A DNA stretch of 64,000 nucleotides from Mustelus asterias (lineage: Eukaryota). The notes beneath the pieces were generated by a model. That model saw only the letters and a list, made by a program, of their open reading frames with translations, made no database searches and had not been told where the DNA came from. Position numbers and translations under genes: made by a program. Positions 2,615 through 64,000 of this stretch are shown in pieces; the first letter of the stretch is position 1, and the number at the start of each line of letters is the position of its first letter. The stretch lies in assembly GCF_964213995.1 (NCBI RefSeq), contig NC_135826.1, forward strand, positions 42,718,001 through 42,782,000. Reading direction: 5' to 3'.

Positions 2615-2790
2615 GGTCATGATGTGGAGATGCCGGCGTTGGACTGGGGTAAACACAGTAAGAAGTTTAACAACACCAGGTTAAAGTCCAACAGGTTTAT
2701 TTGGTAGCAAAAGCCACACAAGCTTGTGTGGCTTTTGCTACCAAATAAACCTGTTGGACTTTAACCTGGTGTTGTTAAACTTCTTACTGT
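2615..2790. mobile_element. Penelope-like palindromic remnant, family 1 (perfect 136-bp palindrome, ribozyme core missing)
   Basis: 2655-2790 is self-complementary around AAG|CTT; direct repeat TGTCTCCAAAGGT at 2602-2614 and 2788-2800. Confidence 0.75.
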
Positions 2791-10306: not shown

Positions 10307-10509
10307 AATCATCACACACAACAAGTGATTATGATCTGCAACGCATTGCCTGAACGGGTGGGAGAAGCAGATTCAACAGAAACTTTCATAAGGGATTTGG
10401 AAAATATTTGAATGGAAGTAAATTTGCAGGGCTCGTGGGAAAGAGCAATGGGGACTGAAACTATTAGATTGCTCTTTCAAAGAGAATCTAGTCCTATTCT
10501 GTCGCTTTA

Positions 10510-11108
10510 TTGCAGATCCAATTGTTACTGTGCAGATTTATAAAACTTTGGTTAGGCTGCACTTAAACTATTGTGTTCAATTCTGGTCGCCACATTACAG
10601 GAAGGATGTGAAGGCTTTGGAGAGGGTGCAGAAGAGGTTTACCAGGATGCTGCCTGGATTGGAGGGTATGAGCTATAAGGAGAGGCTGGTCAAACTATGG
10701 TTGTTTTCTCTGGAACGCGGAGGCTGAGGGGAGATAGACATCTATAAAATTATGAGAGGCATAGATAGCGTTGACAGTCAGAATTTTTCTCCTCCAGAGT
10801 TGAAATGTCTAATACTAGGGTGCATGCACTTAAGGTGAAAGGGGGAAAGTTAAAAGGAAATGTGAGGGGCAAGTTTTTTACACAGAAAGTGATAGGTGTC
10901 TGGAACATGCTGCCAGGGATGGTGGTGGAGGCAGATATGATAGGGGCCTTTAAGGGCCTTTACATACGCACATGAATATGCAAGCAATAGAGGGATATGG
11001 ACCAAGGGCAGGCAGAAGGGATTTGTTTAATTTGGCGCCATGTTCGGCACAACATCACGGGCTGAAGGGCCTATTCCTGTGCTGTAATACTCTATGTTCT
11101 ATGTTCTA
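10510..11108 (+). mobile_element. CR1 LINE 3' fragment
   Basis: YKTLVRLHLNYCVQFWSP; tail (TTCTATG)n. Confidence 0.88.
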
Positions 11109-11852: not shown

Positions 11853-12115
11853 AGTTTATTTATTAGTCACAAGTAAGGCTTACATTAACACAATGAAGCT
11901 ACTGTGAAATTCCCCTTGTCACCACAGTCCGGCCTGTTGAGGTCACTGCATCTAACCAGCACATTTTTCAGAATGTGGGAGGAAACCGGAGCACCCGGAG
12001 GAAACCCACGCAGACACGGGGAGAACATGCAAACTCCACACAGACAGTGACCCAAGCCAGGAATCGAACACGGGTCCCTGGCACTGTGAGGCAGCAGTGC
12101 TAACCACTGTGCCGC
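11853..12115 (-). mobile_element. HE1-like V-SINE with alternative tail
   Basis: As 2125-2416. Confidence 0.83.
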
Positions 12116-14564
12116 TCCAACTTTTTTCTTTATTGCCATTTGATGATAGAAAAATAATGAAGATGCTTTGCTGCCTCATTTCATTGCGTTACTCTGATTT
12201 TAAACAATTAACTCTTCTGTGTATAGCTGAGGGTAGGAGTTCCTCTTGTTACAGGTGCCTGTCTATTCTGAGTTTTTTATTGACTGACTCTGTGTGTGCA
12301 GTGTCCTGTTTGCACAGATCAGATTTGTCTTTTTTTAGTTTCTGTGTTTGAGTGCTCTTAGCACCCTGGCTTCAGGGAGAGATCCAGATCAAAGGGCTTT
12401 CCAAGACAACGGATAAGAGGCATGTTTCTGAATACCCAGACAAGCTAGGAAACCATTCATTGCCTGGTCTCTGGGAGAAACAACTTTAGCCCATTTGTTT
12501 GCTTGCACCTTTCTCTCTGTAATAATACACATTGCTGTTAAAACCCCTGGCTTATCAGTAACTATTTCCCCAGTTGTTCATCTGGAAAAACCATTCCGAA
12601 TCATGGCATGTCCCACCTGTCTAGTTGTGCTCCCCTTTCCCCTTGGGGCTGGTGTTCTCTTCAGAGACAATCTATCTACACTGCCATAACTTACCAGCTC
12701 ACGTGACCGTCACGTCATTGACACTCTTGCAATCTGCATCGCTCCTTTTCTCAATTATCTTCTGCTCTTCATTCCTCAGGTTCTGGTGGAAAAAATCCAG
12801 AGCGAGGGAACGTGACCTTTAAATTAGAACCAGGCCATTCAGCACTGATGTTAGGAAGTCTTTGTGCACAAAAAGACTAGTGTAAATCTCACCACCACCC
12901 CCACCCCGCCCCCTCCACAAAGAAAATTCTTGTGGAGACTGGAAACTGACTATGGTGGATTTTTGCTAAGAGGTTTGCTATTTGGAGGTTATAGAACCAA
13001 AGTAAGCCGATAAAGCTAAGGTACAACCATGATCTGACAGAAGGTTGGAACAAGCTTGATGGGCTGAATGATATCCTCCTGTATTCATGTTTCTTGATTT
13101 TAAATTCAACTTCTCGCTTAAACTCCTTTGCTTTCTCATTGGCCCCCAATCTGGCAAAGTTCAAGCACAACTACCTCTGATTTTAATTTTTTTTAAATTC
13201 ATTCATGGGATGTGGATGTTGCTGGCTGGGACAGCATTTATTGCCCTTCCCTGAAGCATCGCTGTGGACCTGGAGTCACATGCCCTGGGGAAGGATGACA
13301 GATTCCTTTCCCTAAAGGGCATTAGCGAACCAGATGGGTTTTTACAACAATGATTTCATGGTCATCATTAGACTTTTAATTCTTGATTTTTATTGAATTC
13401 AAATTTCACCATCTGCCGTGGGGGTCTCTGGATTACTAATCCAGTGGCAATACCACTAGACCACTGCCTCCCCCAAATCACTCAGTATTGCTGTTTCTAT
13501 TCCATTTACTGTTATATTATAGATCTTTCAAATCACCTTAATTAAAAGAATTTTATTTTTACCCAGCTTTGGTCTTCTTACCTAAGGAAGAATATACTTG
13601 TTGTACAGAGAGAGGATCAATGAAGGTTTGCTTCCTGTACTGAGAGGGTTGTTCAACAGGAAGAATGGAGAATGGCCGAAACTCTCTGGAGTTTAGAAAA
13701 ATGAGAGGCGTTCCCATGAAATTGTATAAAATTCTTAGAGGGCTTGAAATGCTAGACACTGGGAGATTGTTACCCCTGGATGGAGAATCTAGAACTCGGG
13801 GGTGGTATCTCAGGATAAAAGGCCAAGGACCAAAATGAGGAGAATTTATTTTCCACACGGCGAGTGATTGGGGTCTGGAATGCACTGCCTGGAAGTGTGG
13901 TGGAGGCAGGTTCAACTGAGGCATTCAAGAGGGCAACAGATGATTACTTGAACAGAAACAATGTGCAGGGGTTTGGAGAAAAAGCAGTGGAATGGCACTA
14001 AGCCAACTCGTTTGGAGAGCGGTGCAGACGTGATGGGGCCAAATGGGGCTGTGACAATTCTTTCATTGCGTGAAATTTCTTCACTCAGAGAGTTAAGAAG
14101 CTTTGCAATTGTTTACGCCAAAGGACTGTCGATGCTCAGTTGTCGAGTATATTCCAGATGATGATTGATAGATTTCGGGGCACCATGGGAATCAAGGGAT
14201 TTGGGGATTGGATGGGAAAGTGGAATTGAGTGATTGGGAAAGTAGAGCATGAGTGATGATCATGTTCAATAATGGAGCATATTCAAAGGGCCAGATATCC
14301 TAGCCTCGTTTCTCTTTCTTATGTATTTGAGCAACTTCCAAATTTATGTAGATACCTTTTTGGGTTCAGTTGAGTCTGTTACACTCTCCTCGCCACAACA
14401 CCCCCACCCCCAGGCTCCTCCCCACCAGAAGTGAGTTGAGCATCTTACTTTTCAAGGAATTGCCTTCTTTATATCATATATTATACCAGAACCCAGTGGA
14501 ACTGTGTAAGCGAAACCCTTCACACAGCCAACACACATTTACTTTCTCCCTCTGCCAGCAGAGA

Positions 14565-14760
14565 GAGTCTCACAACACCAGGTTAAAGTCCAACAGGTTT
14601 ATTTGGTATCACGAGCTTTCGGAGCGTTGCCCCTTCTCACCTGATGAAGGAGCAGCGCTCCGAAAGCTCGTGATACCAAATAAACCTGTTGGGCTTTAAC
14701 CTGGTGTTGTGAGACTTCTTACTGTGCCCACCCCAGTCCAACGCTGGCATCTCCACATCT
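14565..14760. mobile_element. Penelope-like palindromic remnant, family 1, with a plus-strand hammerhead core
   Basis: Inverted arms homologous to 2655-2790; flanking direct repeat AGCAGAGA (14557-14564 and 14761-14768). Confidence 0.75.
14637..14673 (+). ncRNA. Minimal type-I hammerhead ribozyme motif
   Basis: TCAC-CTGATGA-A-GGAGC-agc-GCTCC-GAAA-G-CTC^-GTGA: stem I TCAC/GTGA, 5-bp stem II, palindromic AGCT in place of stem III. Confidence 0.7.
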
Positions 14761-16428
14761 AGCAGAGATGGGCAGAAAACAGCAGAAACATGACGATGAT
14801 GCTATGTTACCCACATCATAGTTTGACTTAAAGAGATTAATCTTCTCTACATTCTGAACTATCACCCAGGGCAGGACCCCCTTTCCCTGCAGATTCCTAC
14901 TTTTTTCAAAAGCTTTTCTGACCTGGCTGTCCATGCAGAGTTCTGTTTACAAGATCCAGATTGCCTTTTTTGGAATCTATCGTTTAGAATTAAGACTAAT
15001 TTCACAGGTAAGCCAAACTCAAAGAATTTTCCAAAGCAATGGGTGAAAGATGTCTTTCTGGTGACCCAAATGATTAGGGAAGGAAAATGGGAAAATAAGA
15101 TATAGATCAGCCGTGATACAATTGAAGGCTTGAGGGGCTAAATACCTTCAGTCACTACGTTCTTTCTTAACTGAATAAATTCTTCATTAATTAATGAAAA
15201 TCAGTTTCCGTTTGATATATCTTTTGTGTTCCTCTCTTTAGAAAAAAAGTTGGGAAAATACAATTGCTCTTAAAAACAATAATCAAATTCCGTTCAGTTG
15301 AAAATGGAAAATAAGTTCTGAAAGGTGACATTATCATTGTATATTTTGCATTGTTTGATGGTAGAAAGTTGCCCAATTCCTATGAAGGTGAAAGATTACT
15401 AATAGAATTTCATTTAATACATGTTAATGAACTAACCGTTGTTTAATTAAGGCCAAGTTCGCTTTTTCAATTCTCTCCTTCCCACGTGTGAAACAGAATT
15501 GCTCACCACCCGTCCACCACCTGAAACATTCTTCCCAACACTGATGCACAGTGGCAGCAGTGTATACCATCTATAAGATGCAGTGCAGCAACTCACCAAG
15601 GCTCCTTAGGCAGCACCTTCCAAATCCATGACTGCTATCACCTAAATGGGCAAGGGCAGCAGACGCAAGGGAACTACCACCACCTGGAAGTTCCCCTCCA
15701 AGCACATGCCATCCTGACTTAGAAATACATTGCTATTTCTTCACCGTTGCTGGGTTAACTCCCTTCCTAACTGCACTGTTAGTGAATCTACACCTCAGGG
15801 ATTGCAGCGGTTCGAGAAGGCAGTTCATTATGTTCTCAAGGGCAATTAGAGATGGGCAATAAATATTGGCCTAGCCAGCGACGCCTACATCCCATAAATG
15901 GATTTTTAAAAACCCTTCCATTCCTTTCCCCTCATATGTTTATCGAGATTCCCTGAAACTTATCAATATTATTCACCTCAACCTGTGGTGGTGAGTTCCA
16001 CATTCTCACAGTCTCTGGGTACAAAACTTTCTCCTGAATTCCCTTTAGGATTTAACAGTGACTACCTTATGTTTATGATCCCTCGTTCTTCTTCACAAGT
16101 GGAAACATCTGTCTATCATATCAAACTCCCTCATAATCTTCTGGTTCAGATTTTTAATCTATATGTGGCTGCTCTTTTTCCAAACTGCCAAGTGCCTCAG
16201 TGAAGATAGCAGTAGGGTTTTAAGTGACAACAGGAAAATGGTTTTCCTTCAGGCACGATTCACTGGGTAGAATCTCCTTCCATCCAGACTTCATTAGTGA
16301 CCGGAAAAAAAGAAGTGTGTGCATTTTCAAAGCTTTAATTGCGAATGGTTTCAGAAACGTCGTTACACTCATTATGGTAACACTATGAAGAAACTAATGT
16401 TCGCGCCCCATAGGGTTTTGGGGTCATT

Positions 16429-17594: not shown

Positions 17595-17809
17595 TGTGAT
17601 GTGGAGATGCCGGTGTTGGACTGGGCTGGGCACAGTAGGAAGTCTCACAACACCAGGTTAAAGTCCAACTTTGCTCGGTTTATTTGGTATCATGAGCTTT
17701 CAGAGCACTGCTCCTTCATCAGGTGAGTCTGAAGGAGCAGCGCTCCGAAAGCTCGTGATTCCAAATAAACCTGTTGGATTTTAACCTGGTGTTGCGAGAT
17801 TTCTTACTG
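17595..17809. mobile_element. Penelope-like palindromic remnant, family 1 (degenerate hammerhead), upstream of TSSK6 copy B
   Basis: Same arms; 12-bp direct repeat AACTCAGAGATA at 17583-17594 and 17810-17821. Confidence 0.75.
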
Positions 17810-19427: not shown

Positions 19428-20180
19428 CCAGTAAATGGCAGAACCCTTAAGAGTATTGATAGGCAAAGGAATCTGGGTGTACAGGTACACAGGTCACTGA
19501 AAGTGGCAATGCAGGTGGAGAAGGTAGTCAAGAAGGCATATGGCATGCTTGCCTTCATCGGCCGGGGCACTAAGTTTAAAAATTGGCAAGTCATGTTGCA
19601 GCTTTATAGAACCTTAGTTAGGCCGCACTTGGAATATAGTGTTCAATTCTGGTCGCCACACTGCCAGAAGGATGTGGAGGCTTTGGAGAGGGTACAGAAA
19701 AGATTTACCAGGATGTTGCCTGGTATGGAGGGCATCAACTATGAGGAGAGGTTGGAGAAACTTGGTTTGTTCTCAGTGGAACGGCGGAGGTTGAGGGGTG
19801 ACCTGATAGAAGTCTACAAGATTATGAGAGGCATGGACAGAGAGGATAGTCAGAAGCTTTTTCCCAGGGTGGAAGAGTCAATTACTAGGGGGCACAGGTT
19901 TGAGTGCGAGGGGCAAGGTTTAAAGGAGATGTACGAGGCAGATTTTTTACACAGAGGAGGGTGGTGGGTGCCTGGAACTCGTTGTCGGGGGAGGTAGTGG
20001 AAGCGGATACGATAGTGAGTTTTAAGGGGCGTCTTGACAAATACATGAATAGGTTGGGAATAGAGGGATATGGTCCTCAGAAGGCTAGGGGGTTTTAGTT
20101 AAGTCGGGCAGCATGGTTGGTGCAGGCTTGGAGGGCCGAAGGGCCTGTTCCTGTGCTGTAATTTTCTTTGTTCTTTGTTC
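19428..20180 (+). mobile_element. CR1 LINE 3' fragment (young subfamily, closely similar to 35545-36281)
   Basis: ORF 19503-19997; tail gctgtaattttctttgttctttgt. Confidence 0.92.
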
Positions 20181-20397
20181 AATTGATAACATTTTTGCTT
20201 CTAAGTCGGAAAATTGTGAGTTCAAGTCATACTCCAGAGACCTGAACACAAACTCAGTGAGGGGTGAAAACTGAGTGTAATAAGATATGGGCAGCAAAAT
20301 GTTGGATGATGTGGAGTTTAGAGTAGGTGTGAGGTTTTAGCCTGGCGGGGGGTGTGGGGGTGTGGAGGGGGGGGGGGGGGTGCATTTTAATACTCAC

Positions 20398-20581
20398 CAA
20401 AAGAGAAAGTGCTGGAAAATCTCAGCAGGTCTGGCAGCATCTGTAAGGAGAGAAAAGAGCTGACGTTTCGAGTCCAGATGATCCTTTTTCTCTCCTTACA
20501 GGTGCTGCCAGACCTGCTGAGATTTTCCAGCATTTTCTCTTTTGGTTTCAGATTCCAGCATCTGCAGTAATTTGCTTTTAT
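20398..20581. mobile_element. Penelope-like palindromic remnant, family 2
   Basis: About 60-bp inverted arms (20397-20456 and 20487-20545); 14-bp direct repeat ATTTTAATACTCAC (20384-20397 and 20582-20595); the spacer holds a hammerhead 3' half (GAAACGTC) on the minus strand. Confidence 0.7.
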
Positions 20582-21430: not shown

Positions 21431-23292
21431 CTTGCTGAAGTCCAGGTCTGAGGCATTCAAGTCAAGCGACACTGACATATACAAGAAAGCCAGATACAAT
21501 CTAAGGAGATCCATCAAAGATGCCAAAAGACAGTACTGGACCAAGTTAGAGTCCCAGGCTATCCACACCGGCCCCCGCAGATTATGGCAAGGTCTGCAAA
21601 ACATAACAGGCTACAAGATGAAGGTATGTAAAATCGCCGGCTCCAACACAGCCCTCCTTGATGAGCTCAATGCATTCTATGCCCGTTTTGAGCAAGAGGT
21701 CAGTGAGAGCATGCCCTCCACCCTGGATGAACCTGTATCTGGGGGCACAATTGCAGATGTCAGGACAGCTTTCTCGAAGGTCAACCCATGGAAAGCGACT
21801 GGCCCGGATGGGGTACCCGGACGAGCACTCAGATCCTGCATGGATCAGCTGGTGGGGGGTATTCACAGACATCTTTAACCTCTCTTTACAACAATCTGAG
21901 GTCCCCATCTACTTCAAGAAGACGATCATCATCCCGGTATCTAAGAAAAACCAAGCAGCATGTCTTATGACTATCGGCCAGTGGCTCTGACATCGATCAT
22001 TATGGAGTGCTTCGAAAGGTTAGTCATGGCACGAATCAATTCCAGCCTCCCGGACTACCTGGATCCACTACAGTTTGCCGACTGCCGCAACAGGTCCACA
22101 GCAGACCGTCATCTCCCTGGCCCTGCGCTCAACCCTGGAACACCTAGGTAGCAAAGACACCTATGTCAGACTCCTATTTATTGACTACAGCTCAGCCTTC
22201 AGCACCACTATTCCCACGAAACTCATCTCCAAACTCCGTGGCCTCGGCCTCAGCACCTCCCTCTGCGACTGGATCCTCAACTTCCTAATTCATAGACCAC
22301 AATCAGTAAGGATAGGCAGCAACACCTCCTCCACGATCATCCTCAACACCGGTGCCCCACAAGGCTGTGTTCTCAGCCCCCTACTATACTCCTTATACAC
22401 CTGTGACTGTGTGGCCAAATTCCCCTCCAATTCAATTTTCAAGTTTGCTGACGACACCACCATAGTGGGTCGGATCTCAAACAATGACGAGATAGAGTAC
22501 AGGAATGAGATAGAGAATCTGGTGAACTGGTGCGGCAACAATAATCTCTCCCCCAATGTCAACAAAATGAAGGAGATTGTCATTGATTTCATGAAGCATA
22601 AAGGAGAACATGCCCCTGTCTACATCAACGGGGACGAAGTAGAAAGGGTCGAGAGCTTCAAGTTTTTAGGTGTCCAGATCACCAACAACATGTCCTGGTC
22701 CCTCCATGCCGACACTATAGTTAAAAAAGCCCACCAATGCCTCTACTTTCTCAGAAGACTAAGGAAATTTGGCATGTCAGCTATGACTCTCACCAACTTT
22801 TACAGATGCACCATAGAAAGCATTCTTTCTGATTGTATCACAGCTTGGTATGGCTTCTGCTCTGCCCAAGACTGCAAGGAACTATAAAAGGTCATGAATG
22901 TAGCCCAACCCATCACGCAAACCAGCCTCCCATCCATTGACTCTGTCTACACTTCCCGCTGCCTCGGCAAAGCAGCTAGCATAATTAAGGACCCACACAC
23001 CCCGGACATTCTCTCTTCCACCTTCTTCCATCGGTAAAAAGATACAAAAGTCTGAGGTCATGTACCAACCAACTCAAGAACAGCTTCTTCCCTGCTGCTG
23101 TCAGATTTTTGAATGGGCTTACCTTGCATTAAGTTGATCTTTCTCTACACCCTAGCTATGACTGTAACACTACATTCTGCACTCTCTCGTTTCCCTCTCT
23201 ATGAACGGTATGCTTTGTCTACATAGCGTGCATGAAACAATTCTTTTCACTGTATGTTAATACATGTGACAATAATAAATCAAATCAAATCA
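21431..23292 (+). mobile_element. Rex1/Babar-type LINE, 5'-truncated and frameshifted
   Basis: [63 protein letters not shown]; tail aataataaatcaaatcaaatc. Confidence 0.9.
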
Positions 23293-26458: not shown

Positions 26459-28728
26459 GCAGATGACACTAAGATGGGTGGAAGAGCAAAGTGTGCAGAG
26501 GACGCTGAAAGTCTGCAAAGGGATATAGATAATCTAAGTGAGTGGGCGAGTGTCTGGCAGATGGAGTACAATGTTGGTAAATGTGAGGTCATCCATTTTG
26601 GTAGGAATAACAGCAAAATGGACTATAATTTAAATGGTAAAAAATTGCAGCATGCTGCTGTGCAGAGGGACCAGGGTGTCCTTGCGCAGGAATCTCAAGG
26701 AGTTGGTTTGCAGGTGCAGCAGGTAATTAAGAAGGTAAATGGAATTTTGTCCTTCATTGCTAGAGGGATGGAGTTTAAAAACAGCGAGATTATATTGCAG
26801 CTATATAAGGTGCTGGTGAGGCCACACCTGGAGTACTGTGTACAGTTTTGGACTCCTTACTTGATAAAGGATATACTGGCACTGGAGGGGGTGCAAAGGA
26901 GATTCACTAGGTTGATTCCGGAGTTGGGAGGGTTGGCTTATGAGGAGAGACTGAGTAGACAGGGACTATACTCATTGGAATTCAGAAGAATGAGGGGAGA
27001 TCTTATAGAAACATATAAGATTATGAAGGGAATAGATAAGATAGAAGCAGGGAAGTTGTTTCCATTGGCAGGTGAAACTAGAACTAGGGGGCATAGCCTC
27101 AAAATAAGGGGGAGCAGATTTAGAACAAAGAACAATACAGCACAGGAACAGGCCCTTCGGCCCTCCAAGCCCGTGCTGCTCCCTGGTCCAAACTAGACCA
27201 TTCTTTTGTATCCCTCCATTCCCACTCCGTTCATATGGCTATCTAGATAGTCTTAAACGTTCCCAGTGTGTCCGCCTCCACCACCTTGCCTGGCAGCGCA
27301 TTCCAGGCCCCCACCACCCTCTGTGTAAAATACGTCCTTCTGATATCTGTGTTAAACCTCCCCCCCTTCACCTTGAACCTATGACCCCGGTGAACGTCAC
27401 CACCGACCTGGGGAAAAGCTTCCCACCTTTCACCCTATCTATACCTTTCATAATTTTATACACCTCTATTAAGTCTCCCTTCATCCTCCGTCTTTCCAGG
27501 GAGAACAACCCCAGTTTACCCAATCTCTCCTCATAACTAAGCCCCTCCATACCAAGCAACATCCTGGTAAACCTCCTCTGTACTCTCTCCAAAGCCTCCA
27601 CGTCTTTCTGGTAGTGTGGCGACCAGAACTGGACGCAGTATTCCAAATGCGGCCGAACCAATGTTCTATACATCTGCAACATCAGACCCCAACTTTTATA
27701 TTCTATGCCCCGTCCTATAAAGTCAAGCATGCCATATGCCTTCTTCACCACCTTCTCCACCTGTGACATCACCTTCAAGGATCTGTGGACTAGCACACCC
27801 ATGTCCCTCTGCGTATCTACACCCTTTATGGTTCTGCCATTTATCGTATAGCTCCTCCCTACATTACTTCTACCAAAATGCATCAGGATTGAACTCCATC
27901 TGCCATTTCTTTGCCCAAATTTCCAGCCTATCTATATCCTTCTGTAGCCTCTGACAATGCTCCTCACTATCTGCAAGTCCTGCCAATTTTGTGTCGTCCG
28001 CAAACTTACTGATCACCCCAGTTACACCTTCTTCCAGATCGTTTATATAAACCACAAACAGCAGAGGTCCCAATACAGAACCCTGCGGAACACCACTAGT
28101 CACAGGCCTCCAGCTGGAAAAAGACCCTTCCACTACCACCCTTCTGTCTTCTGTGACCAAGCCAGTTCTCCACCCATCTAGCCACCTCCCCCTTTATCCC
28201 ATGAGATCCAACCTTTTTCACCAGCCTACCATGAGGGACTTTGTCAAACGCTTTACTAAAGTCCATAAAGACGACATCCACGGCCCTTCCCTCGTCAACC
28301 ATTCGAGTCACTTCTTCGAAAAACTCCACCAGGTTAGTGAGGCATGACCTCCCTCTCACAAAACCATGCTGACTATCGTTAATGAGTTTATTCCTTTCTA
28401 TATGCGCATACATCCTATCTCTAAGAATCTTCTCCAACAACGTCTCCACCACGGACGTCAAGTTAGGACTGAGTTGAGGAGGAACTTCTTCACCCAAAGG
28501 GTTGTGAATCTGTGGAATTCCCTGCCCAGTGAAACAGTTGAGGCTACCTCATTGAATGTTTTTAAGGCAAGGATAGATAAATTTTTGAACAGTAAAGGAA
28601 TTAAGGGTTATGGTGAGCGGGCGGGTAAGTGGAGCTGAGTCCACAGAAGGATCATCCATGATCTTATTGAATGGCAGAGCAGGCTCGAGGGGCCAGATGG
28701 CCTACTCCTGCTCCTAGTTCTTATGTTC
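26459..28728 (+). mobile_element. CR1 LINE 3' fragment interrupted by an oppositely oriented CR1
   Basis: RT ORF reads to ...KIRGSRFR at 27123 and resumes TELRRNFFTQRVV at about 28467. Confidence 0.88.
27124..28462 (-). mobile_element. CR1 LINE fragment nested in another CR1
   Basis: ORFs 28096-28497, 27870-28160 and 27368-27883 carry RT motifs; TTAG at both junctions. Confidence 0.9.
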
Positions 28729-28770: not shown

Positions 28771-29098
28771 GGGCGGCACGGTGGCACAGTGGTTACCACT
28801 GCTGCTTAACAATGCCAGAGACCCGGGTTCAATTCCCGGTTTGGGTCATTGTCTGTGTGGAGTTTGCACCTTTTCCCCATGTCTGCATGGATTTCCTCCG
28901 GGTGCTCTGATTTCCTCCCACAGTCCAAAGATGTGTGGGTTAGGTGGATTGGCCACGCTAAATTGCCCTTTAGTGTCAAGGGGACTAGCTAGGGTAATGT
29001 AATATGTGGGGTTACGGGGATAGGGCCTGGGTAGGATTGTGGTCGGTGCAGACTCGATGGGCCGAATGGCCTCCTTCTGCACTGTAGGGATTCTATGA
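28771..29098 (+). mobile_element. HE1-like V-SINE
   Basis: gggcggcacggtggcacagtgg...gggccgaatggcctccttctgcactgtagggattctatga. Confidence 0.88.
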
Positions 29099-29216
29099 CC
29101 ACATCCCAAGAATGGTTAACAAGAAGCATTGGCACCAGATATGTTAAAGATTTCGGTAAAGCAACTGATAACATGCGAGATTTTTAACTTTGGGATCTAT
29201 TTCCCTTTCCCTGCAG

Positions 29217-30794: not shown

Positions 30795-30980
30795 CCAGGT
30801 TGAAGTCCAACAGGTTTGTTTGGTAGCACAAGCTTTCGGAGTGCTGCTCCTTCATCAGGTGATGAAGGAGCAGCACTCCGAAAGCTCGTGCTACCAAATA
30901 AACCTGTTGGACTTTAACCTGGTGTTGTGAGACTACTTACTGTGCCCACCCCAGTCCAACATCGGCAACTCCACATCATG
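30795..30980. mobile_element. Penelope-like palindromic remnant, family 1, in an ARMC6 intron
   Basis: Same arms; near-perfect direct repeat GCTTCCACATTC/GCTTTCACATTC (30783-30794 and 30981-30992). Confidence 0.75.
30827..30862 (-). ncRNA. Minimal hammerhead ribozyme motif, antisense to ARMC6
   Basis: The minus strand reads CAC-CTGATGA-A-GGAG-cagca-CTCC-GAAA-G-CTT^-GTG. Confidence 0.62.
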
Positions 30981-31789
30981 GCTTTCACATTCTGAGTGTG
31001 ACAATTCTGCTCCACCTCCAATTGGAAGAGAATTGGATGGGAAAGTCTGTCTGATCTGTTATTGCATGTTTTCTGGTGTGTATCCAAATGGGGTTTGATG
31101 AAGGGGAGATGCATGCTTCCCATGCTCTAGATGGGAGAGGTTAGCGACTCCATCAGAACTTGTGCATCAAGTGTTAACACCTTAAGTAAATATTCTTGGC
31201 AAGAAATAGTCTTAATGGCATTAACCATATCAATGTTAATAACTTTCCGATGGAGTCCTTGCTTGAGCCATTGGACGCTCTGGGCGTCACCTGGTATTTG
31301 GCAGATTGTTGGGGGGGGCGGGGTGGGGGGCGGGGGTGGATGGAATTCTGCTTAATTCATGTTTTCTTTTTGAAATAGAGCAAGTTATGTGATGAGCCAA
31401 AGTCAGTATTGGGCACATTGCCTTGATTCTTTGTTTCAACATGAGAATTGGTTGGGGTGGGGGAGGGTGGATGGTTTGGGTGGAATACTTTATTGTGACA
31501 CAAAGATTGCAACAGGGCAAATTGTCACAACTGGCATAGAGTCCCGTTCACCCATCTTTCCTGTGCTCGCTGCTTTCTGACCGATATTGCCTTTCAGTTA
31601 AACAATGCCTCAATTTTCAAAATTCCCATCCTTGTTTACAGATTCCTCGGTAGCCTCACTCCTCACTATTTCTGTAATCTCCAGCCCCACAACCCTATGA
31701 TCCTGTAAAGCGCCTCTGGACAGTTTACTGCATGCTATTTAACTACATTTTTTTATTGGCTGATTAAGCGATTACTTGTGTGTTTTTAG

Positions 31790-32671: not shown

Positions 32672-33005
32672 GGGGCGGCACAGTAGCACAGTGGTTAGCA
32701 CTGCTGCTTCACAGCTCCAGGGTCCTGGGTTTGATTCCCGGCTGGGGTCACTGTCTGTGTGGAGTTTGCACATTCTCCTCGTGTCTGTGTGGGTTTCCTC
32801 CGGGTGCTCCGGTTTCCTCCCACAGTCCAAAGATGTGCGGGTTAGGTTGATTGGCCAGGTTAAAAATTGCCCCTGAGATGCGTAGGTTAAGAGGGATTAG
32901 CAGGTAAAATATGTGGGGGTAGGGCCTGGGTGGGATTGTGGTCGGTGCAGACTCGATGGGCCGAATGGCCTCCTTCTGCACTGTCGGGTTTCTATCTTCT
33001 ATCTT
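32672..33005 (+). mobile_element. HE1-like V-SINE
   Basis: Full head, V-domain and CR1-type tail. Confidence 0.88.
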
Positions 33006-33396: not shown

Positions 33397-33746
33397 TTGG
33401 GAGTGTTTGATGGGGACAGTGTAGAGGGAGCTTTACTCTGTATCTAACCCCGTGCTTTACCTGTCCTGGGAATGTTTGATGGGGACAGTGTAGAGGGAGC
33501 TTTACTCTGTATCTAACCCCGTGCTGTACCTATCCTGGGAGTGTTTGATGGGGACAGTGTAGAGGGAGCTTTACTCTATTTATCTTCGTCAGGTGAAGTT
33601 ACCTGATGAAGGAGCAGTGCTCCAAAAGCTTGTGATTTCAGATAAACCTGTTGGACTATAACCTGGTGTTGTGTGACCTCTCATCTTGTCCTGGGAGTGT
33701 TTGATAGCTTTACCCTATCTAACCCCAAGCTGTACCTGTCCTGAGA
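33397..33746 (+). repeat. 69-bp minisatellite (GGGAGTGTTTGATGGGGACAGTGTAGAGGGAGCTTTACTCTGTATCTAACCCCGTGCTGTACCTGTCCT), interrupted by a Penelope-like fragment
   Basis: Unit starts at 33399, 33468 and 33537 (69-bp period); a partial unit follows at about 33688. Confidence 0.9.
33584..33680 (+). mobile_element. Penelope-like fragment, family 1, hammerhead core mutated (GAAA to AAAA)
   Basis: acCTGATGAaggagcagtgctccAAAAgcttgtg...aaacctgttggactataacctggtgttgtg. Confidence 0.7.
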
Positions 33747-35544: not shown

Positions 35545-36281
35545 GAGTATTGATAGGCAAAGGGATTTGGGTGTACAGGTACACAGGTCACTGAAAGTGG
35601 CAACACAGGTCACTGAAAGTGGCAACGCAGGTGGAGAAGGTAGTCAAAAAGGCATATGGCATGCTTGCCTTCATCGGCCAGGGCATTGAGTTTAAAAATT
35701 GGCAAGTCATGTTGCAGCTTTATAGAACCTTAGTTAGGCCGCACTTGGAATATAGTGTTCAATTCTGGTCGCCACACTACCAGAAAGATGTGGAGGCTTT
35801 GGAGAGGGTACAGAAAAGATTTACCAGGATGTTGTCTGGTATGGAGGGCATTAGCTATGAAGAGAGGTTGGAGAAACTTGGTTTGTTCTCACTGGAACGA
35901 CGGAGGTTGAGGGGCGACCTGATAGAAATCTACAGGATTATGAGAGGCACGGACAGAGTGGATAGTCAGAAGCTTTTTCCCAGGGTGGAAGAGTCAATTA
36001 CTAAAGGGCATTGGTTTAAGGTGCGAGGGGCAAGGTTTAAAGGAGATGTACGAGGCAGATTTTTTACACAGAGGGTGGTGGGTGCCTGGAACTTGCTGTC
36101 AGGGAAGCAGGTATGATACTGACTTTTAAGGGGCGCCTTGACAAATACATGAATAGGATGGGAATAGAGGGATATGGTCCCCGGAAGGGTAGAGGTTTTT
36201 AGTTAAGTCGGGCAGCATGGTCGGTGCAGGCTTGGAGGGCCGAAGGGCTTGTTCCTGTGCTGTAATTTTCTTTGTTCTTTG
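35545..36281 (+). mobile_element. CR1 LINE 3' fragment
   Basis: ORF 35619-36116; internal 22-bp tandem duplication at 35581-35624. Confidence 0.92.
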
Positions 36282-36814: not shown

Positions 36815-39800
36815 GAACTGAGGAACTGGTGCAGGGGGCAGGGTTTCCAATTCTTAGATCATTGGGACCTCCTTTGGGGCAGGTGGGACCTGTACAAGAG
36901 AGACGGGTTACACCTAAACTACAAGGGGACCAATATACTTGCAGGGAGATTTGCTAGTGTTATTGGGGAGCGTTTAAACTAGATTTGCAGGGGGGTGGGA
37001 ACCAGAGTGCCAGAGCAGATAGTGGAGCAGGGGTAAAAAGACAGGTTAGTTCAAGCAAAATCACAAATGGAAGGGTAGAGTGTGGTGGAAATAATTTTTT
37101 GAGGTGTGTCTATTTCAATGCCAGGAGTATTGTGGGGAAGGCAGATGAGCTGAAGGCGTGGATAGACGCATGGAAATATGACATTATAGCCATTAGTGAA
37201 ACTTGGCTACAGGAGGGGCAGGACTGGCAGCTCAATGTTCCAGGGTTCCAATGTTTCAGGCGGGATAGAGGCAGAGGGATAAAAGGTGGGGGGGTGGCAT
37301 TGTTGGTCAGGGAAAATGTTACAGCGGTACTAAGGCAGGATAGATTAGGGAGCTTGTCTACAGAGGCCCTATGGGTGGAGCTGAGAAACAGGAAAGGTAT
37401 GACCACATTAATGGGCTTGTATTATAGACCACCCAATAGTCAGCGAGAATTGGAGGAGCAAATCAGCGGAGAGATAGCTGACAACTGCAAGAAACACAAA
37501 GTTGTGATAGTAGGGGATTTTAATTTTCCACATATAGATTGGGACTCGCATACTGTTAAAGGTTTAGACGGGGTAGAGTTTGTAAAATGTGTTCAGGAGA
37601 ATTTTCTACACCAGTATATAGAGGTGCCAACTAGAGAGGATGCGATATTGGATCTCCTATTGGGAAATGAGTTAGGGCAGGTGATGGATGTGAGTGTGAG
37701 GGAACACTTTGGATCCAGTGATCATAATGCCATTAGTTTCAACCTGATCGTGGATAAGGATAGATCTGGTCCTCGGGTTGAAGTTCTGAACTGGAAAAAG
37801 GCCAAATTTGATGAAATGAGAAGGGATCTGGGAAGTGTGGATTGGCACAGGCTGTTCTCTGGTAAGGATGTAAATGGAAAGTGGGAGGCCTTCAAAGGAG
37901 AAATTTTGAGAGTGCAGAGTTTGTATGTTCCTGTCAGGATTAAAGGCAAAGTAAATAGGAATAAGGAACCTTGGTTCTCGAGGGAGATTGTAACACTGAT
38001 TAAGAGGAAGAGAGAGTTGTATGAAATGTACAGGCAGCAAGAAACACATCAGATGCTCGAGGAGTATAAAAAGTGCAAGAAGCTACTTAAGAGGGAAATC
38101 AGGAGGGCTAAAAGAAGACATGAGGTTGCTTTGGCAGATAGAGTGAAGGAAAATCCAAAGAGCTTCTATAGGTATGTTAGGAGCAAAAGGATAGTGAGGG
38201 ATAAAATTGGTCCTCTTGAAGACCAGAGTGGTACACTGTGTATGGAACCAAAAGAGATGGGGGAGATACTAAATGGTTTTTTTGCATCCGTATTTACTGA
38301 GGAAACGGGCATGGAGTCTACGGAAATAGGGCAAACTGGTAGGGAGGCCATGGAACCTTTACAGATTAAAGGGGAGGAGGTGCTCGCTGTCTTGAGGCAA
38401 ATCAGAGTGGATAAATCCCCAGGACCGGACAGGGTATTCCCACGGACCTTGAGGGAAGCTAGTGTTGAACTTGCAGGGGCCCTGACAGACATATTTAAAA
38501 TGTCAGTATTCACGGGGGAGGTGCCGGATGATTGGAGGGTGGCTCATGTTGTTCCCTTGTTTAAAAAAGGTTCCAAAAGAAATCCGGGAAATTATCGGCC
38601 AGTAAGTTTGACGTCGGTGGTGGGCAAGTTATTGGAAGGTGTGATACGGGATAGGATCTACAAATATTTGGATAGACAGGGACTTATTAGGGAGAGTCAA
38701 CATGGCTTTGTGCGTGGTAGGTCATGTTTGACCAATCTATTCCGAGTTTTTCGAGGAGGTTACCAGGAAAGTGGATGAAGGGAAGGCGGTGGATGTTGTC
38801 TACCTGGATTTCAGCAAGGCCTTTATCAAGGTCCCTCATGGGAGGTTAGTTAGGAAGGTTCAGTCGCTAGGTATACATGGGGAGGTAGTAAATTGGATAA
38901 GACACTGGCTCAATGGAAGAAGCCAGAGAGTGGTTGTGGAGGATTGCTTCTGAGTGGAGGCCTGTGACTAGTGGTGTGCCGCAGGGATCGGTGTTGGGTC
39001 CATTGTTGTTTGTCATCTATATCAATGATCTGGATGATAATGTGGTCAATTGGATCAGCAAGTTTGCTGATGATACAAAGATTGGAGGTGTAGTGGACAG
39101 CGAGGAAGGTTTTCAAAGCTTGCAGAGGGATTTGGACCAACTAGAAAAATGGGCTGAAAAATGGCAAATGGAATTTAACGCAGACAAGTGTGAGATATTG
39201 CACTTTGGAAGGACAAATCAAAGTAGAACGTACAGGGTAAATGGTAGGAATCTGAAGAGTGCAGTTGAACAGAGGGATCTGGGAATACAGGTACAGAATT
39301 CCCTAAAAGTGACGTCACAAGTGGATAGGGTCGTAAAGAGTGCCTTTGGTACATTGGCCTTTATAAATCGGAGTATCGAGTATAAAAGTTGGAGTGTTAT
39401 GGTAAGGTTATATAAGGCATTGGTGAGGCCGAATTTGGAGTATTGTGTACAGTTTTGGTCACCTAGTTACAGGAAGGATGTAAATAAGATTGAAAGAGTG
39501 CAGAGGAGGTTCACAAGGATGTTGCCGGGACTTGAGAAGCTGAGTTACAGAGAGAGATTGAATAGGTTGGGACTTTATTCCCTGGAGCGTAGAAGATTGA
39601 GGGGAGATTTGATAGAGGTGTATAAGATTTTGATGGGTATAGATAGAGTGAATGCAAGCAGGCTTTTTCCGCTGAGGCTAGGGGAGAAAAAAACCAGAGG
39701 GCATGGGTTAAGGGTGAAAGGAGAAAAGTTTAAAGGGAATATTAGGGGGGGCTTCTTCACGCAGAGAGTGGTGGGAGTGTGGAATGAGCTGCCAGATAAA

Positions 39801-39980
39801 GTGGTAAATGCACTTTTAACATTTAAGAAAAACTTGGACGGGTTCATGGATGAGAGGGGTGTGGAGGGATATGGTCCAAGTGCAGGTCAGTGGGACTAGG
39901 CATAAAATGGTTCGGCACAGACAAGAAGGGCCAAAAGGCCTGTTTCTGAGCTGTAATTTTCTATGGTTCTATGGTTCTAA
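36815..39980 (+). mobile_element. CR1 LINE, 5'-truncated, with end of ORF1 (esterase-like) and near-complete ORF2 (APE + RT) broken by two frameshifts
   Basis: ORF1 tail YKRDGLHLN; ORF2 motifs [67 protein letters not shown]; tail (TTCTATGG)n. Confidence 0.95.
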
Positions 39981-49994: not shown

Positions 49995-50490
49995 GAACTT
50001 TTACAGATGCACCATAGAAAGCATTCTTTCTGGTTGTATCACAGTTTGGTGTGGCTCCTGATCTGACCAAGACCGCAAGAAACTACAAAAGGTCGTGAAT
50101 GTAGCCCAATCCATCACGCAAACCAGCCTCCCACCCATTGACTCTGTCTACACTTCCCGCTGCCTCGGCAAAGCAGCCAGCATAATTAAGGACCCCACGC
50201 ACCCCGGACATTCTCTCTTCCACCTTCTTCCTTCGGGACAAAGGTACAAAAGTCTGAGGTCACGTACCAACCGACTCAAGAACAGCTTCTTCCCTGCTGC
50301 CGTCAGACTTTTGAATGGACTTACCTTGCATTAAGTTGATCTTTCTCTACACCCTAGCTATGACTGTAACACTACATTCTGCACTCTCTCATTTCCTTCT
50401 CTATGAACGGTATGCTTTATCTGTATAGCGCGCAAGAAACAAAACTTTTCACTGTATGTTAATACATGTGACAATAATAAATCAAATCAA
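49995..50490 (+). mobile_element. Rex1/Babar 3' fragment
   Basis: Closely similar to 22795-23290. Confidence 0.88.
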
Positions 50491-50576
50491 AAAACTAATT
50501 GCTGTTTGTGGGACATTGCTCCATGCAAATTGTCTTTCACATTTCCCTACCTCATGAGAGTAACTGCACTTCAAAG

Positions 50577-59685: not shown

Positions 59686-59872
59686 AAATAAATCATTTAT
59701 GGGATGTGGATAGCTAGGCCAGCATTTATTGACCATTCTTAGTTGTCTTTGGGGAGGTGGTGGTGAGTTGCCTAAAACTAAGGGAAAGTTCACTGCTCCT
59801 CGGGGAAGCAATGAACTTTTACCCCTACCAAGCCTCACCGCTGGTATGTGGTTGATTTAATATAAAAATATC

Positions 59873-60000
59873 GTGCTGGAAAAGCTCAGCAGGTCTGGCA
59901 GCATTCTGTGGATGCTGCCGGACCTGCTAAGTGAGCTTTTCCAGCACTTTCTGTTTTTATTTCAGATCTCCAACATCTGCAGTATTTAGCTTTTATTTTA
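59873..60000. mobile_element. Penelope-like palindromic remnant, family 2 (degraded)
   Basis: gctggaaaagctcagcaggtctggcagcat and its inverted copy; same 3' extension as 20546-20580. Confidence 0.6.
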
Positions 60001-61741: not shown

Positions 61742-62318
61742 GACACGATAGTTAAGAAAGCTCACCATCGCCTCTACTTTCTCAGAAGACTAAGGAAATT
61801 TGGCATGTCATTTACAACTCTCACTAACTTTTACAGATTCACCATAGAAAGCATTCTTTCTGGTTGTATCACAACTTGGTATGGCTCCTGCTCTGCCGAA
61901 GACCACAAGAAACTACAAAAGGTCGTGAATGTAGCCCAATCCATCACGCAAACCAGCCTCCCATCCATTGACTCTCTCTACACTTCCCGCTGCCTCGGCA
62001 AAGCAGCTAGCATAATTAAGGACCCCATGCACCCCGGACATTCTCTCTTCCACCTTCTTCCGTTGGGAAAAAGATACAAAAGTCTGAGGTCACGTACCAA
62101 CCGACTCAAGATCAGCTTCTTCCCTGCTGCTGTCAGATTTTTGAATGGACTTACCTTGCATTAAGTTGATCTTTCCCTAGACCCTAGCTATGGCTGTGAC
62201 ACTATATTCTGCACTCTCCCTTTCCTTTTCTATGAATGGTATGTTTTGTCTGTATAGCCTGCAAGAAACAATACTTTCCATGGTGTGCTAATACATGTGA
62301 CAATAAAAAATCAAATCA
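61742..62318 (+). mobile_element. Rex1/Babar 3' fragment
   Basis: ORF 61805-62164; closely similar to 22710-23290. Confidence 0.88.
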
Positions 62319-63782
62319 TTGCAGGTTTGTGGGACCTTGCAGTCAACAGTGACCATACTTCACACGAACTTAATGGGCTGATGAGGCTAAAATGCAAGTA
62401 CTTTTCTTGAGCTGCTCCTAGGGAATTTCAGGATGTTAATCCAGTAATAATTTAGCACTTTAAAACAAAAATGACCATAACAGTGTCACTATCTGACGGG
62501 CAAGGATCACTTGACTCTAATATTGTTATCTGAGATGGAAGCAGAACTGAAGTTCCAAATAACACGCATCCAATTGGTTGCCAGTTAAGGTTGGATGTTA
62601 AATGTAATTGAAATTATAACAAAAATCTATTAACAGGAACAGAGTATACTCACTGCTATTCTGTCTTCAACAGGGTGGGAGGCTGGTGCCAGATTTACCA
62701 GTTAGCGCCTGTTACAAGGAGGCTGTTTTTCTTAATTTTTTGTGACATTAATCATCTAAGTCTAAATTTCTTTCAGAACTTCTCAGCTTTCTGATATTCT
62801 GTCACTTTATCATGTTTCAGATGAGTTTTTGTACACTCAATCCAAGAGGTCCTAATTTCTATACTTCTCTGTTTAATGTGATATTGAGTCTATTATAGCT
62901 GCTAGTGAATGAAGACTGATTTTAAAATTCAATCATTTCAGCATTTGAAAAGCCTCAATGTTGCAATTTGTGCTCTGCACTATTGCGGGATCAAATTCCT
63001 GGAACCCCTTCCCTAACAGCTCTGTGGATGTAGCTACACTATATGGACTACAACGGTTCAAGAAGGCAGCTCACCGCCACCTTCCTGAGGGCAAGTAGGG
63101 AGGGGCAATAAATGCTGTCCTCGCCAGTGACGCCAACATCCCATGAATGAATAAGATAAATTCTACATCTGATATCAGATTTCAATCCAGTGATATCTTG
63201 AATCCAGAGTGATACCATTAATTTTCTGCCAAATTCTCCATGTCACTGGAGCAAACTGTGATGGAATGCACAAAGGACTTGAACCCTGCCTCCAACTGGC
63301 AATTTTGAAGCATTAAACCAGCTCGGGGGAGTGAATGAGAAGCAGATGATAATTAGCATTGAGCAACAGTCGAGTTAAGCACTCTTGAATGCTCCAGAAC
63401 ATTATTGAAGAGGTGCTCTGCACTCTGGTCTCCCTGATTTCCAACACTGCCATTGGTAGCTGTGTCTTCAGATGCCTAGGTTGTAAGCTCTGTAATTCCC
63501 TCTCTGACCCTCTTAGCCTCTCATTTAAGCCATTCTTTAAAACTTATCTCTTTGACCAAGTTCTCAGTCCCAATTCCTAATGTCTGCTTCGGTGGCTCAT
63601 TGTCAGACTTTTTAACACACTGCTTTGGAATATCTTGGGATGTTTTTGTACATTCGAGTCAGTATATGAATGCTAGTTCTTGTTGAGAAACCCTCTTGAG
63701 GATAAGCTTATTGGTTAAGGCTCATTGGTTGCTTCATGTGGATTTGAATGACCCTATGCAAAGAAGGCAGGGTATTATTACA

Positions 63783-64000
63783 GGGCGGCACGGTAGCACA
63801 GTGGTTAGCACTGCTGCTTCACAGCTCCAGGGACCTGGGTTCGATTCCCGGCTTGGGTCACTGTCTGTGTGGAGTTTGCACATTCTCCTCGTGTCTGCGT
63901 GGGTTTCCTCCGGGTGCTCCGGTTTCCTCCCACAGTCCAAAGATGTGCGGGTTAGGTTGATTGGCCATGCTAAAATTGCCCCTTAGTGTCCTGGGATGTG
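63783..64000 (+). mobile_element. HE1-like V-SINE (young; runs off the window)
   Basis: Intact Pol III B-box GGTTCGATTCC; CpGs preserved. Confidence 0.88.

Follow-up and report, generated by a model that had tools for sequence, protein, structure and literature searches.

From our analysis of a 64,000-nucleotide stretch of the Mustelus asterias genome (the window), we consider it fairly probable that the short palindromes it carries are short insertions of a Neptune-type Penelope-like element (PLE), each with a centre of its own, likely primed from both nicked strands of the target on RNA left uncut by the hammerhead. It is nearly certain that their arms are the pLTR end, with the bases preceding the start codon, of a Neptune-type PLE of 3 kb that this genome carries. 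A wider reading is held with slightly less than even confidence: on the order of 10^5 Penelope events in sharks may be the work of a two-headed RT-nuclease that primes on both target strands, starts at two fixed sites of one capped, uncleaved RNA and copies it to the cap. The element type and its layout are already known and this is no new system; the PLE family may already be catalogued in Repbase or Dfam.

Palindromic copies of the window and their source element

Five copies of the family were located in the 64-kb window by sequence reading and alignment (at 2615, 14565, 17595, 30795 and 33584), all of them where the sequence-only reading had placed them and, as it had said, without an ORF, the longest ATG frame in any of the five being 39 aa. 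The features are the following.

14566-14759, main copy, between 8-bp direct repeats 14557-14564 and 14761-14768
14557..14564, plus strand, left copy of the 8-bp target-site duplication (TSD)
14566..14636, minus strand, inverted arm, the pLTR end; proximal start class, beginning 43 nt short of the ATG
14637..14759, plus strand, direct arm, the pLTR end of a Neptune-type PLE; distal start class
14637..14673, plus strand, minimal type I hammerhead by sequence, fold and covariation; putative ribozyme
14717..14759, plus strand, one-sided tail, in the direct arm only (tail concept as in the available text of PMC8557442 and PMC11167929)
14761..14768, plus strand, right copy of the 8-bp TSD
2615..2787, unstranded, palindromic copy with a 13-bp TSD and identical arms, without an intact hammerhead
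17595..17809, unstranded, palindromic copy with a 12-bp TSD; complete minus-strand hammerhead with C3 at 17722
30795..30985, unstranded, palindromic copy with staggered arms; minus-strand hammerhead, C3 at 30858
33584..33690, plus strand, copy with mostly one arm and a short remnant of the inverted one; A in place of G12

Direct repeats of 8-13 bp had been claimed; those of 8, 13 and 12 bp stood, but that of copy 30795 is exact over only 7 bp (12 with one mismatch). A search of the flanks of copy 33584 for direct repeats of at least 7 bp found none. The four fold-backs were also borne out, with the amendment that the fifth copy (33584) likewise has an inverted remnant of ~13 nt. In the main copy, the direct arm stops just ahead of the A of the ORF start codon and the inverted arm extends into the stem II/core region of the hammerhead (95.8% over 71 nt). 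The arms of copy 2615 meet through a 6-nt stem III palindrome (2720-2725); in copy 17595, the arm with the hammerhead runs to the putative start site and then has a single non-templated base (17729); and in copy 30795 the left arm reaches further 5' and the right arm further 3'. A strict motif scan returned a complete core in three of the five copies (14641 on the plus strand, 17722 and 30858 on the minus strand), and in copy 33584 the GAAA reads AAAA.

Several other observations concern the window. A 7-nt insertion (17670-17677) interrupts the otherwise conserved left arm of copy 17595, and copy 33584 sits within a tandem repeat of ~60-bp units (33420-33735). A second, unrelated palindromic family with a one-sided extension occurs at 20396-20575 and 59859-59990, with sub-threshold Rfam miRNA matches; the copy at 20396-20575 is centred on a GAAACGTC-type motif and resembles stumps from a different PLE family. 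There are many copies of a tRNA-like SINE (2117-2426, 11926-12126, 28771-29103, 32673-33002, 63783-63982 and others), which we take to resemble the shark HE1 SINE, repeated fragments at 10421-10792, 19432-19868, 26686-27063, 35603-35984 and 39293-39972, which presumably resemble 3' ends of CR1-type LINEs, and a three-copy repeat at 22795-23289, 49996-50491 and 61826-62321.

A genome search for a full-length partner mapped the arm to a PLE with RT and GIY-YIG. The earlier suggestion of stereotyped truncated or inverted Penelope insertions that record the insertion mechanism gains support from this mapping to the pLTR end and start-codon region. Among loci picked by the shared outer end, some copies have the ATG of the ORF at that end and others carry long sense sequence upstream. 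At one locus (L093), two direct arms 3017 bp apart flank the ORF in the order pLTR-ORF-pLTR, a unit of ~3.0 kb; another 3.0-kb unit (L097) holds an 889-codon frame with one stop. The direct arm of the main copy is 83-85% identical to the pLTRs of these two loci and 95% to a third (L039), whose 515 bp upstream align at 78% with L097 over the end of its ORF and its 3' region.

A 765-aa part of L097 matched RVT_1 in Pfam (E 1e-7); Pfam gave no GIY-YIG match on L097, and phmmer against PDB sequences gave 0 matches. With the predicted model of the 765 aa (pLDDT 90.8) the top five Foldseek hits were all telomerase RTs, and the model of the C-terminal domain (pLDDT 92.6) best matched I-TevI, a GIY-YIG nuclease (E 0.005, rmsd 2.0, TM 0.84 by target length). 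The CX4CX2C linker (C17, C22, C25), the CCHH and the Y/YxG/R/H/E/N residues are invariant in 73/73 aligned proteins, the invariant endonuclease residues being Y56, C60, C64, Y69, G71, R80, H84, H100, H106, E130 and N145. The closest named relatives are shark proteins of 80-91% identity. By sequence and structural model, the element is an EN+ PLE, with a single ORF for a predicted telomerase-like RT and a predicted C-terminal GIY-YIG domain with CCHH; its layout is that of an EN+ PLE as well, with a pLTR from a partial tandem (L093), an inverted 5' copy and a one-sided tail (59/65 pairs). It is assigned as Neptune-type by its predicted CX2-5CxxC linker ahead of the C-terminal EN, a feature taken from the available text of PMC8557442, where Neptune is called paraphyletic.

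Two side observations concern copies elsewhere in the genome. In one subfamily, marked by a 5-nt loop II together with A at position 7 (L061, L104, L115, L118, L165, L185), the arms are identical, as are copies at separate loci, which suggests very recent activity. Many copies in the series L061-L090 end or restart ~90 nt into the ORF, near codon 30, and this pile-up suggests that the RT has another favoured site within the ORF for starting or stopping.

The hammerhead motif and the 5' ends of the arms

Direct sequence reading and RNAfold agree with the earlier description of 14637-14673 as a complete minimal hammerhead. Its stem I pairs 14637-14640 with 14670-14673, followed by the core CTGATGA (14641-14647), an extra A (14648), a 5-bp stem II (14649-14661) and GAAA (14662-14665); a palindromic AGCU replaces stem III. 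H17 is C14669, after which the cut is predicted. RNAfold of the main copy yields the hammerhead fold (z = -1.5), and an Rfam search gave no hammerhead match at E <= 5, the minimal motif escaping Rfam. The exact 34-nt core occurs 4515 times in the 3.68-Gb genome (551 + 193 + 3771, over the four preceding bases) and its reversed control 0 times, which argues that the motif is not due to chance.

Conservation was tabulated in 170 distinct complete motifs from 317 anchored arms, at loci taken without selection by the hammerhead pattern and with up to 2 core mismatches permitted. Position 7 is free (T66, C62, A37, G5), the remaining CUGANGA positions are kept in 164-168 of the 170, the extra A in 166 and the GCT of the stem III palindrome in 159; G stands at position 17 in four, and pair 1.1 is C-G in 99 and U-A in 46. 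In a covariation set of 53 aligned motifs (52 of 74 listed, nearly all with a 3-nt loop, plus the window copy), 95% of stem cells pair and covariation is 0.283 against 0.211 for shuffled alignments, with 0/500 shuffles higher. The covariation check thus found compensatory changes, the stem I pairs differing between subfamilies; because the aligned rows are related, the covariation amounts to a few lineage-level events, and the changes in stem II are mostly one-sided G-U with few independent events. When two copies of the hammerhead were co-folded, the minimum was an intermolecular stem II duplex (-28.7 kcal/mol), with a partial active arrangement without stem I at -18.3. By its sequence, the core and H17 pattern is that of a predicted minimal type I hammerhead as defined in the available text of PMC4209133. 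We propose that the hammerhead is selected in the source elements, yet is a passenger in the stumps. On the minus strand of 14637-14648, stem I and the core antisense read CAG/GTGAG(T), a perfect 5' splice donor consensus found in the TCAC subfamilies; conceivably, inverted arms could act as cryptic splice donors in host introns.

The ends of the arms were analysed in two sets not selected on the junction, namely contiguous tiles that cover 504 kb and take in the window (64 arms), and tail-motif loci (99 loci with 194 of the 258 arms in total, after 5 more were dropped as unalignable). Arms were counted only if they contained a 27-nt anchor with no more than 5 mismatches, a rule that missed the interrupted left arm of copy 17595. 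At the 5' side, 65/258 arms end at -9..-3 of C3, 16 times the upstream per-base rate (p 1e-44), whereas 4/258 end within 2 nt of the predicted cut site (0.003 per base, not above neighbouring windows); in the tiles alone the counts are 14/64 and 0/64. The scarcity of ends at the cut site is indicative that the templates were mostly uncut, in line with the in vitro work on the Anolis PLE (PMC11167929, available text), for which ribozyme cleavage was not needed. The 5' cluster lies past the whole ribozyme, just before stem I, and is spread over -9..-3 rather than on one base.

The A of the cluster fits the initiator consensus (BBCABW) in 96/114 long arms, and a TATA lies ~30 nt upstream of it in 58/114, with some loci overlapping in both counts. 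The base before the clustered end is G at 551 sites genome-wide and A or T at 193; sampling found true ends in 30/30 G copies and 17/30 A/T copies, which corresponds to ~551 G, 71 A (41-105) and 39 T (17-71). The extra G is thus ~8-fold commoner than A or T before the end in TATA-bearing subfamilies, and among one-armed copies ~184 have G against 45 with A or T. In at least 5 of the 30 sampled G copies (8-10 by eye), the opposite arm is the direct source of the G. The TATA-less subfamily had no G excess among 30 sampled (true ends G 4, A 5, T 2), nor was there one a base further in (G 8, C 8, T 7; 30 sampled). Two other origins of the end were considered and rejected: GACTCAC as the natural 5' sequence of the element, since long copies read C before the cluster A, and a spliced leader, for which 30 loci had no common upstream sequence other than the inverted arms. 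Our best reading, by analogy, is that the extra G would be a copied cap and the 5' cluster a putative transcription start. In L1 and SVA, an untemplated G at the 5' end is accepted as the mark of a copied cap (PMC4859970), and a TATA and an initiator-like motif are reported for a rotifer pLTR (PMC3846280), both from the available text of these sources.

Outer ends, junctions and the origin of the palindromes

The arms were compared in 65 head-to-head pairs whose two 5' ends lie no more than ~260 nt from the core. The 3' ends of arms form two groups, one at the ATG and one 26-47 nt upstream, and 59/65 pairs join one arm starting from the ATG (distal) to another starting ~35 nt upstream (proximal). 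The outer end that had been described as common to the fold-backs was borne out, but it is one of two, the second being stereotyped as well. In the unselected tiles, 19/22 pairs of any length consist of one distal and one proximal arm, and 14/20 solo arms are proximal. A TSD of 11-15 bp was found in 48/65 pairs, the length being variable over 9-17 bp; at least 9 bp was found in 55/65 pairs, against 1/65 in a control with swapped flanks. There are 60 junction types among the 65 pairs, the commonest seen 3 times, so the fold-back point varies as had been noticed and each palindrome was most likely built at insertion. Copy sizes form a continuum up to full length, with 143/258 arms holding the last 135 nt or less only. 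The density of insertions in the unselected tiles is 42 in 504 kb, about one per 12 kb in this one region.

We propose that both target strands would be nicked ~12-13 bp apart, one strand priming at the distal site and its partner at the proximal site; the two outer ends would thus be two internal RT start sites, as in the Anolis element. Since these start sites are only ~90-125 nt from the 5' end of the transcript, many cDNAs would run off it, probably at a capped start on the initiator-like A that is copied as an extra G. Longer copies may come from priming at the downstream pLTR of a read-through RNA, and the two cDNA ends would be joined head to head by short microhomology or fill-in.

The relation between the two arms bears directly on this proposal. 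Among 59 arm pairs, 27 are staggered, 20 nested and 12 tied, that is, 27/47 informative pairs are staggered; at a 10-nt margin the counts are 16 staggered, 10 nested and 33 tied, and at 20 nt 11 staggered and 10 nested (11/21). These calls depend on an aligner that stops early at mismatches, the left arm of the main copy being +18 by script and ~+5 by BLAST and by eye. Copying of a fold-back only nests, so simple snap-back is ruled out as the source of the staggered pairs, and the observed counts match the even split of staggered and nested that two primers would be expected to give. The 5' ends of the two arms are also correlated far upstream (8/18 pairs within 12 nt; 0/10000 permutations), and private variants are common to both arms at L044, L112, L164 and L169. 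These two observations fit one RNA template, but they also fit a snap-back followed by deletions at the centre; the arms probably both come from one RNA molecule or one source locus.

Snap-back or self-priming is unlikely but is to be taken seriously. In this account a single cDNA, or the antisense template that has been suggested for rotifer Penelope, would fold on itself and serve as its own template; the nuclease or structure would fix where the second arm stops, and the centres would be remodelled later. Snap-back is the published reading of head-to-head junction palindromes (PMC3846280) and has been observed with R2 (PMC11371274), as far as the available text of both goes; it predicts the common private variants and correlated 5' ends, and some centres are perfect palindromes (2720-2725 of the window; L127, L185). 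Besides the staggered pairs, which post-insertion deletions at the centres could have produced from nested ones, two results speak against it: one-armed copies start at the same site as the shorter outer end, as the mostly proximal solo arms show, and the extra G points to a sense, capped template. Twin priming on two separate RNAs, joined for example through the self-complementary stem III of the hammerhead, is a good deal less probable. It would produce staggered arms, the AGCU palindrome is kept in 159/170 hammerheads, and the arms of L054 have different linker variants; the far-upstream correlation and the variants shared between arms at the four loci nevertheless fit a single template better. 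Nothing specific on a twin-priming account of Penelope, or on these shark palindromes, was found in the open-access library searched.

The remaining explanations fare worse. The suggestion of a non-autonomous mini-element (ribozyme-bearing, or a retrozyme) that is transcribed in its own right and copied in palindromic form is very improbable: although the insertion density in the tiles is very high and retrozymes are reportedly derived from PLEs (bioRxiv 10.64898/2026.07.22.740005, available text), the diversity of junctions does not agree with amplification as a unit, the sizes run on to full length, no tandem arrays exist among the five window copies and many copies have no complete hammerhead. 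It is scarcely tenable that ribozyme cleavage makes the template end and so sets the fold-back at the cut site, which the sequence-only reading had implied; copy 2615 does fold at the stem III palindrome adjoining the cut site and the hammerhead core and stems are conserved, yet the 4/258 arms ending there refute it as a general rule. Inverted arms between direct repeats recall a MITE, the terminal inverted repeats of a DNA transposon, but this origin, raised earlier as a check, is refuted to near certainty by the mapping of the arms to the PLE pLTR and start codon, by unequal outer ends in 59/65 pairs and by a TSD that is variable rather than of fixed short length.

Relation to known elements and implications

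An inverted copy with a tail is standard for PLEs in the available text of PMC8557442, PMC3846280, PMC2377424 and PMC8969392. EN+ PLEs with an inverted 5'-truncated copy and a tail of 30-40 bp are described in PMC8557442, for Pen2a_Av (PMC3846280) and for D. virilis Penelope (PMC2377424); as far as these sources could be compared, they and the shark copies have in common the head-to-head inverted pLTR, one-sided tail, TSD, pLTR hammerhead, a TATA/initiator-like motif upstream and a pLTR that runs up to or into the ORF start. They differ in that over half of the shark arms (143/258) are 135 nt or shorter, and in that the junctions of EN+ PLEs are read in print as self-priming, whereas the shark ends favour two primers.

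The closest biochemical likeness is Poseidon of Anolis carolinensis (PAc), which, according to the available text of PMC11167929, nicks and extends both strands on an uncleaved template from two internal RT start sites that delimit the tail. The PAc starts lie 111-118 nt inside an ORF that begins within the hammerhead (same source), whereas the distal start of the shark element is at the ATG, ~90-100 nt after the predicted cut site; the shark protein also carries the CX4CX2C linker, which Penelope/Poseidon proteins do not have. With the metazoan PLE hammerheads of PMC4209133 (available text), the shark motif shares the want of a stable stem III, the palindromic 15.2-16.2, the extra base after A9, the short stem I and G10.1-C11.1, as well as occurrence mostly as single copies or close opposite-strand pairs; it differs in its stem II of 5-6 bp, and sharks are not named in that text.

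Two further comparisons rest on the available parts of the sources. LINE-1 resembles the shark element in that an inversion arises when the opposite target strand serves for a second priming, and in the untemplated G at complete 5' ends (PMC4859970), but L1 inversions consist of non-overlapping parts of one RNA, whereas both shark arms are copies of a single stretch, which makes a palindrome. Non-LTR retrozymes are likewise non-coding, with a type I hammerhead and PLE derivation (bioRxiv 10.64898/2026.07.22.740005), but they are tandem direct repeats with a hammerhead per unit, whereas the shark copies are dispersed inverted pairs with unique junctions.

These insertions are an annotation hazard, as the palindromes could be mistaken for MITEs or, given the sub-threshold Rfam miRNA matches, for microRNA hairpins. 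The formation of the inverted repeat and tail of PLEs, and the role of the hammerhead, are described as unresolved in the available text of PMC3846280, PMC8557442 and PMC11167929, and at about one insertion per 12 kb in one region such questions of mechanism become countable. Three predictions for the process in vivo follow from the counts: each insertion uses two primers, the template is uncut, and the start site lies immediately ahead of stem I. In essence, the two-headed model, if true, would explain the inverted pLTR and one-sided tail of PLEs and replace self-priming, and the job of the hammerhead would lie outside the preparation of the template.
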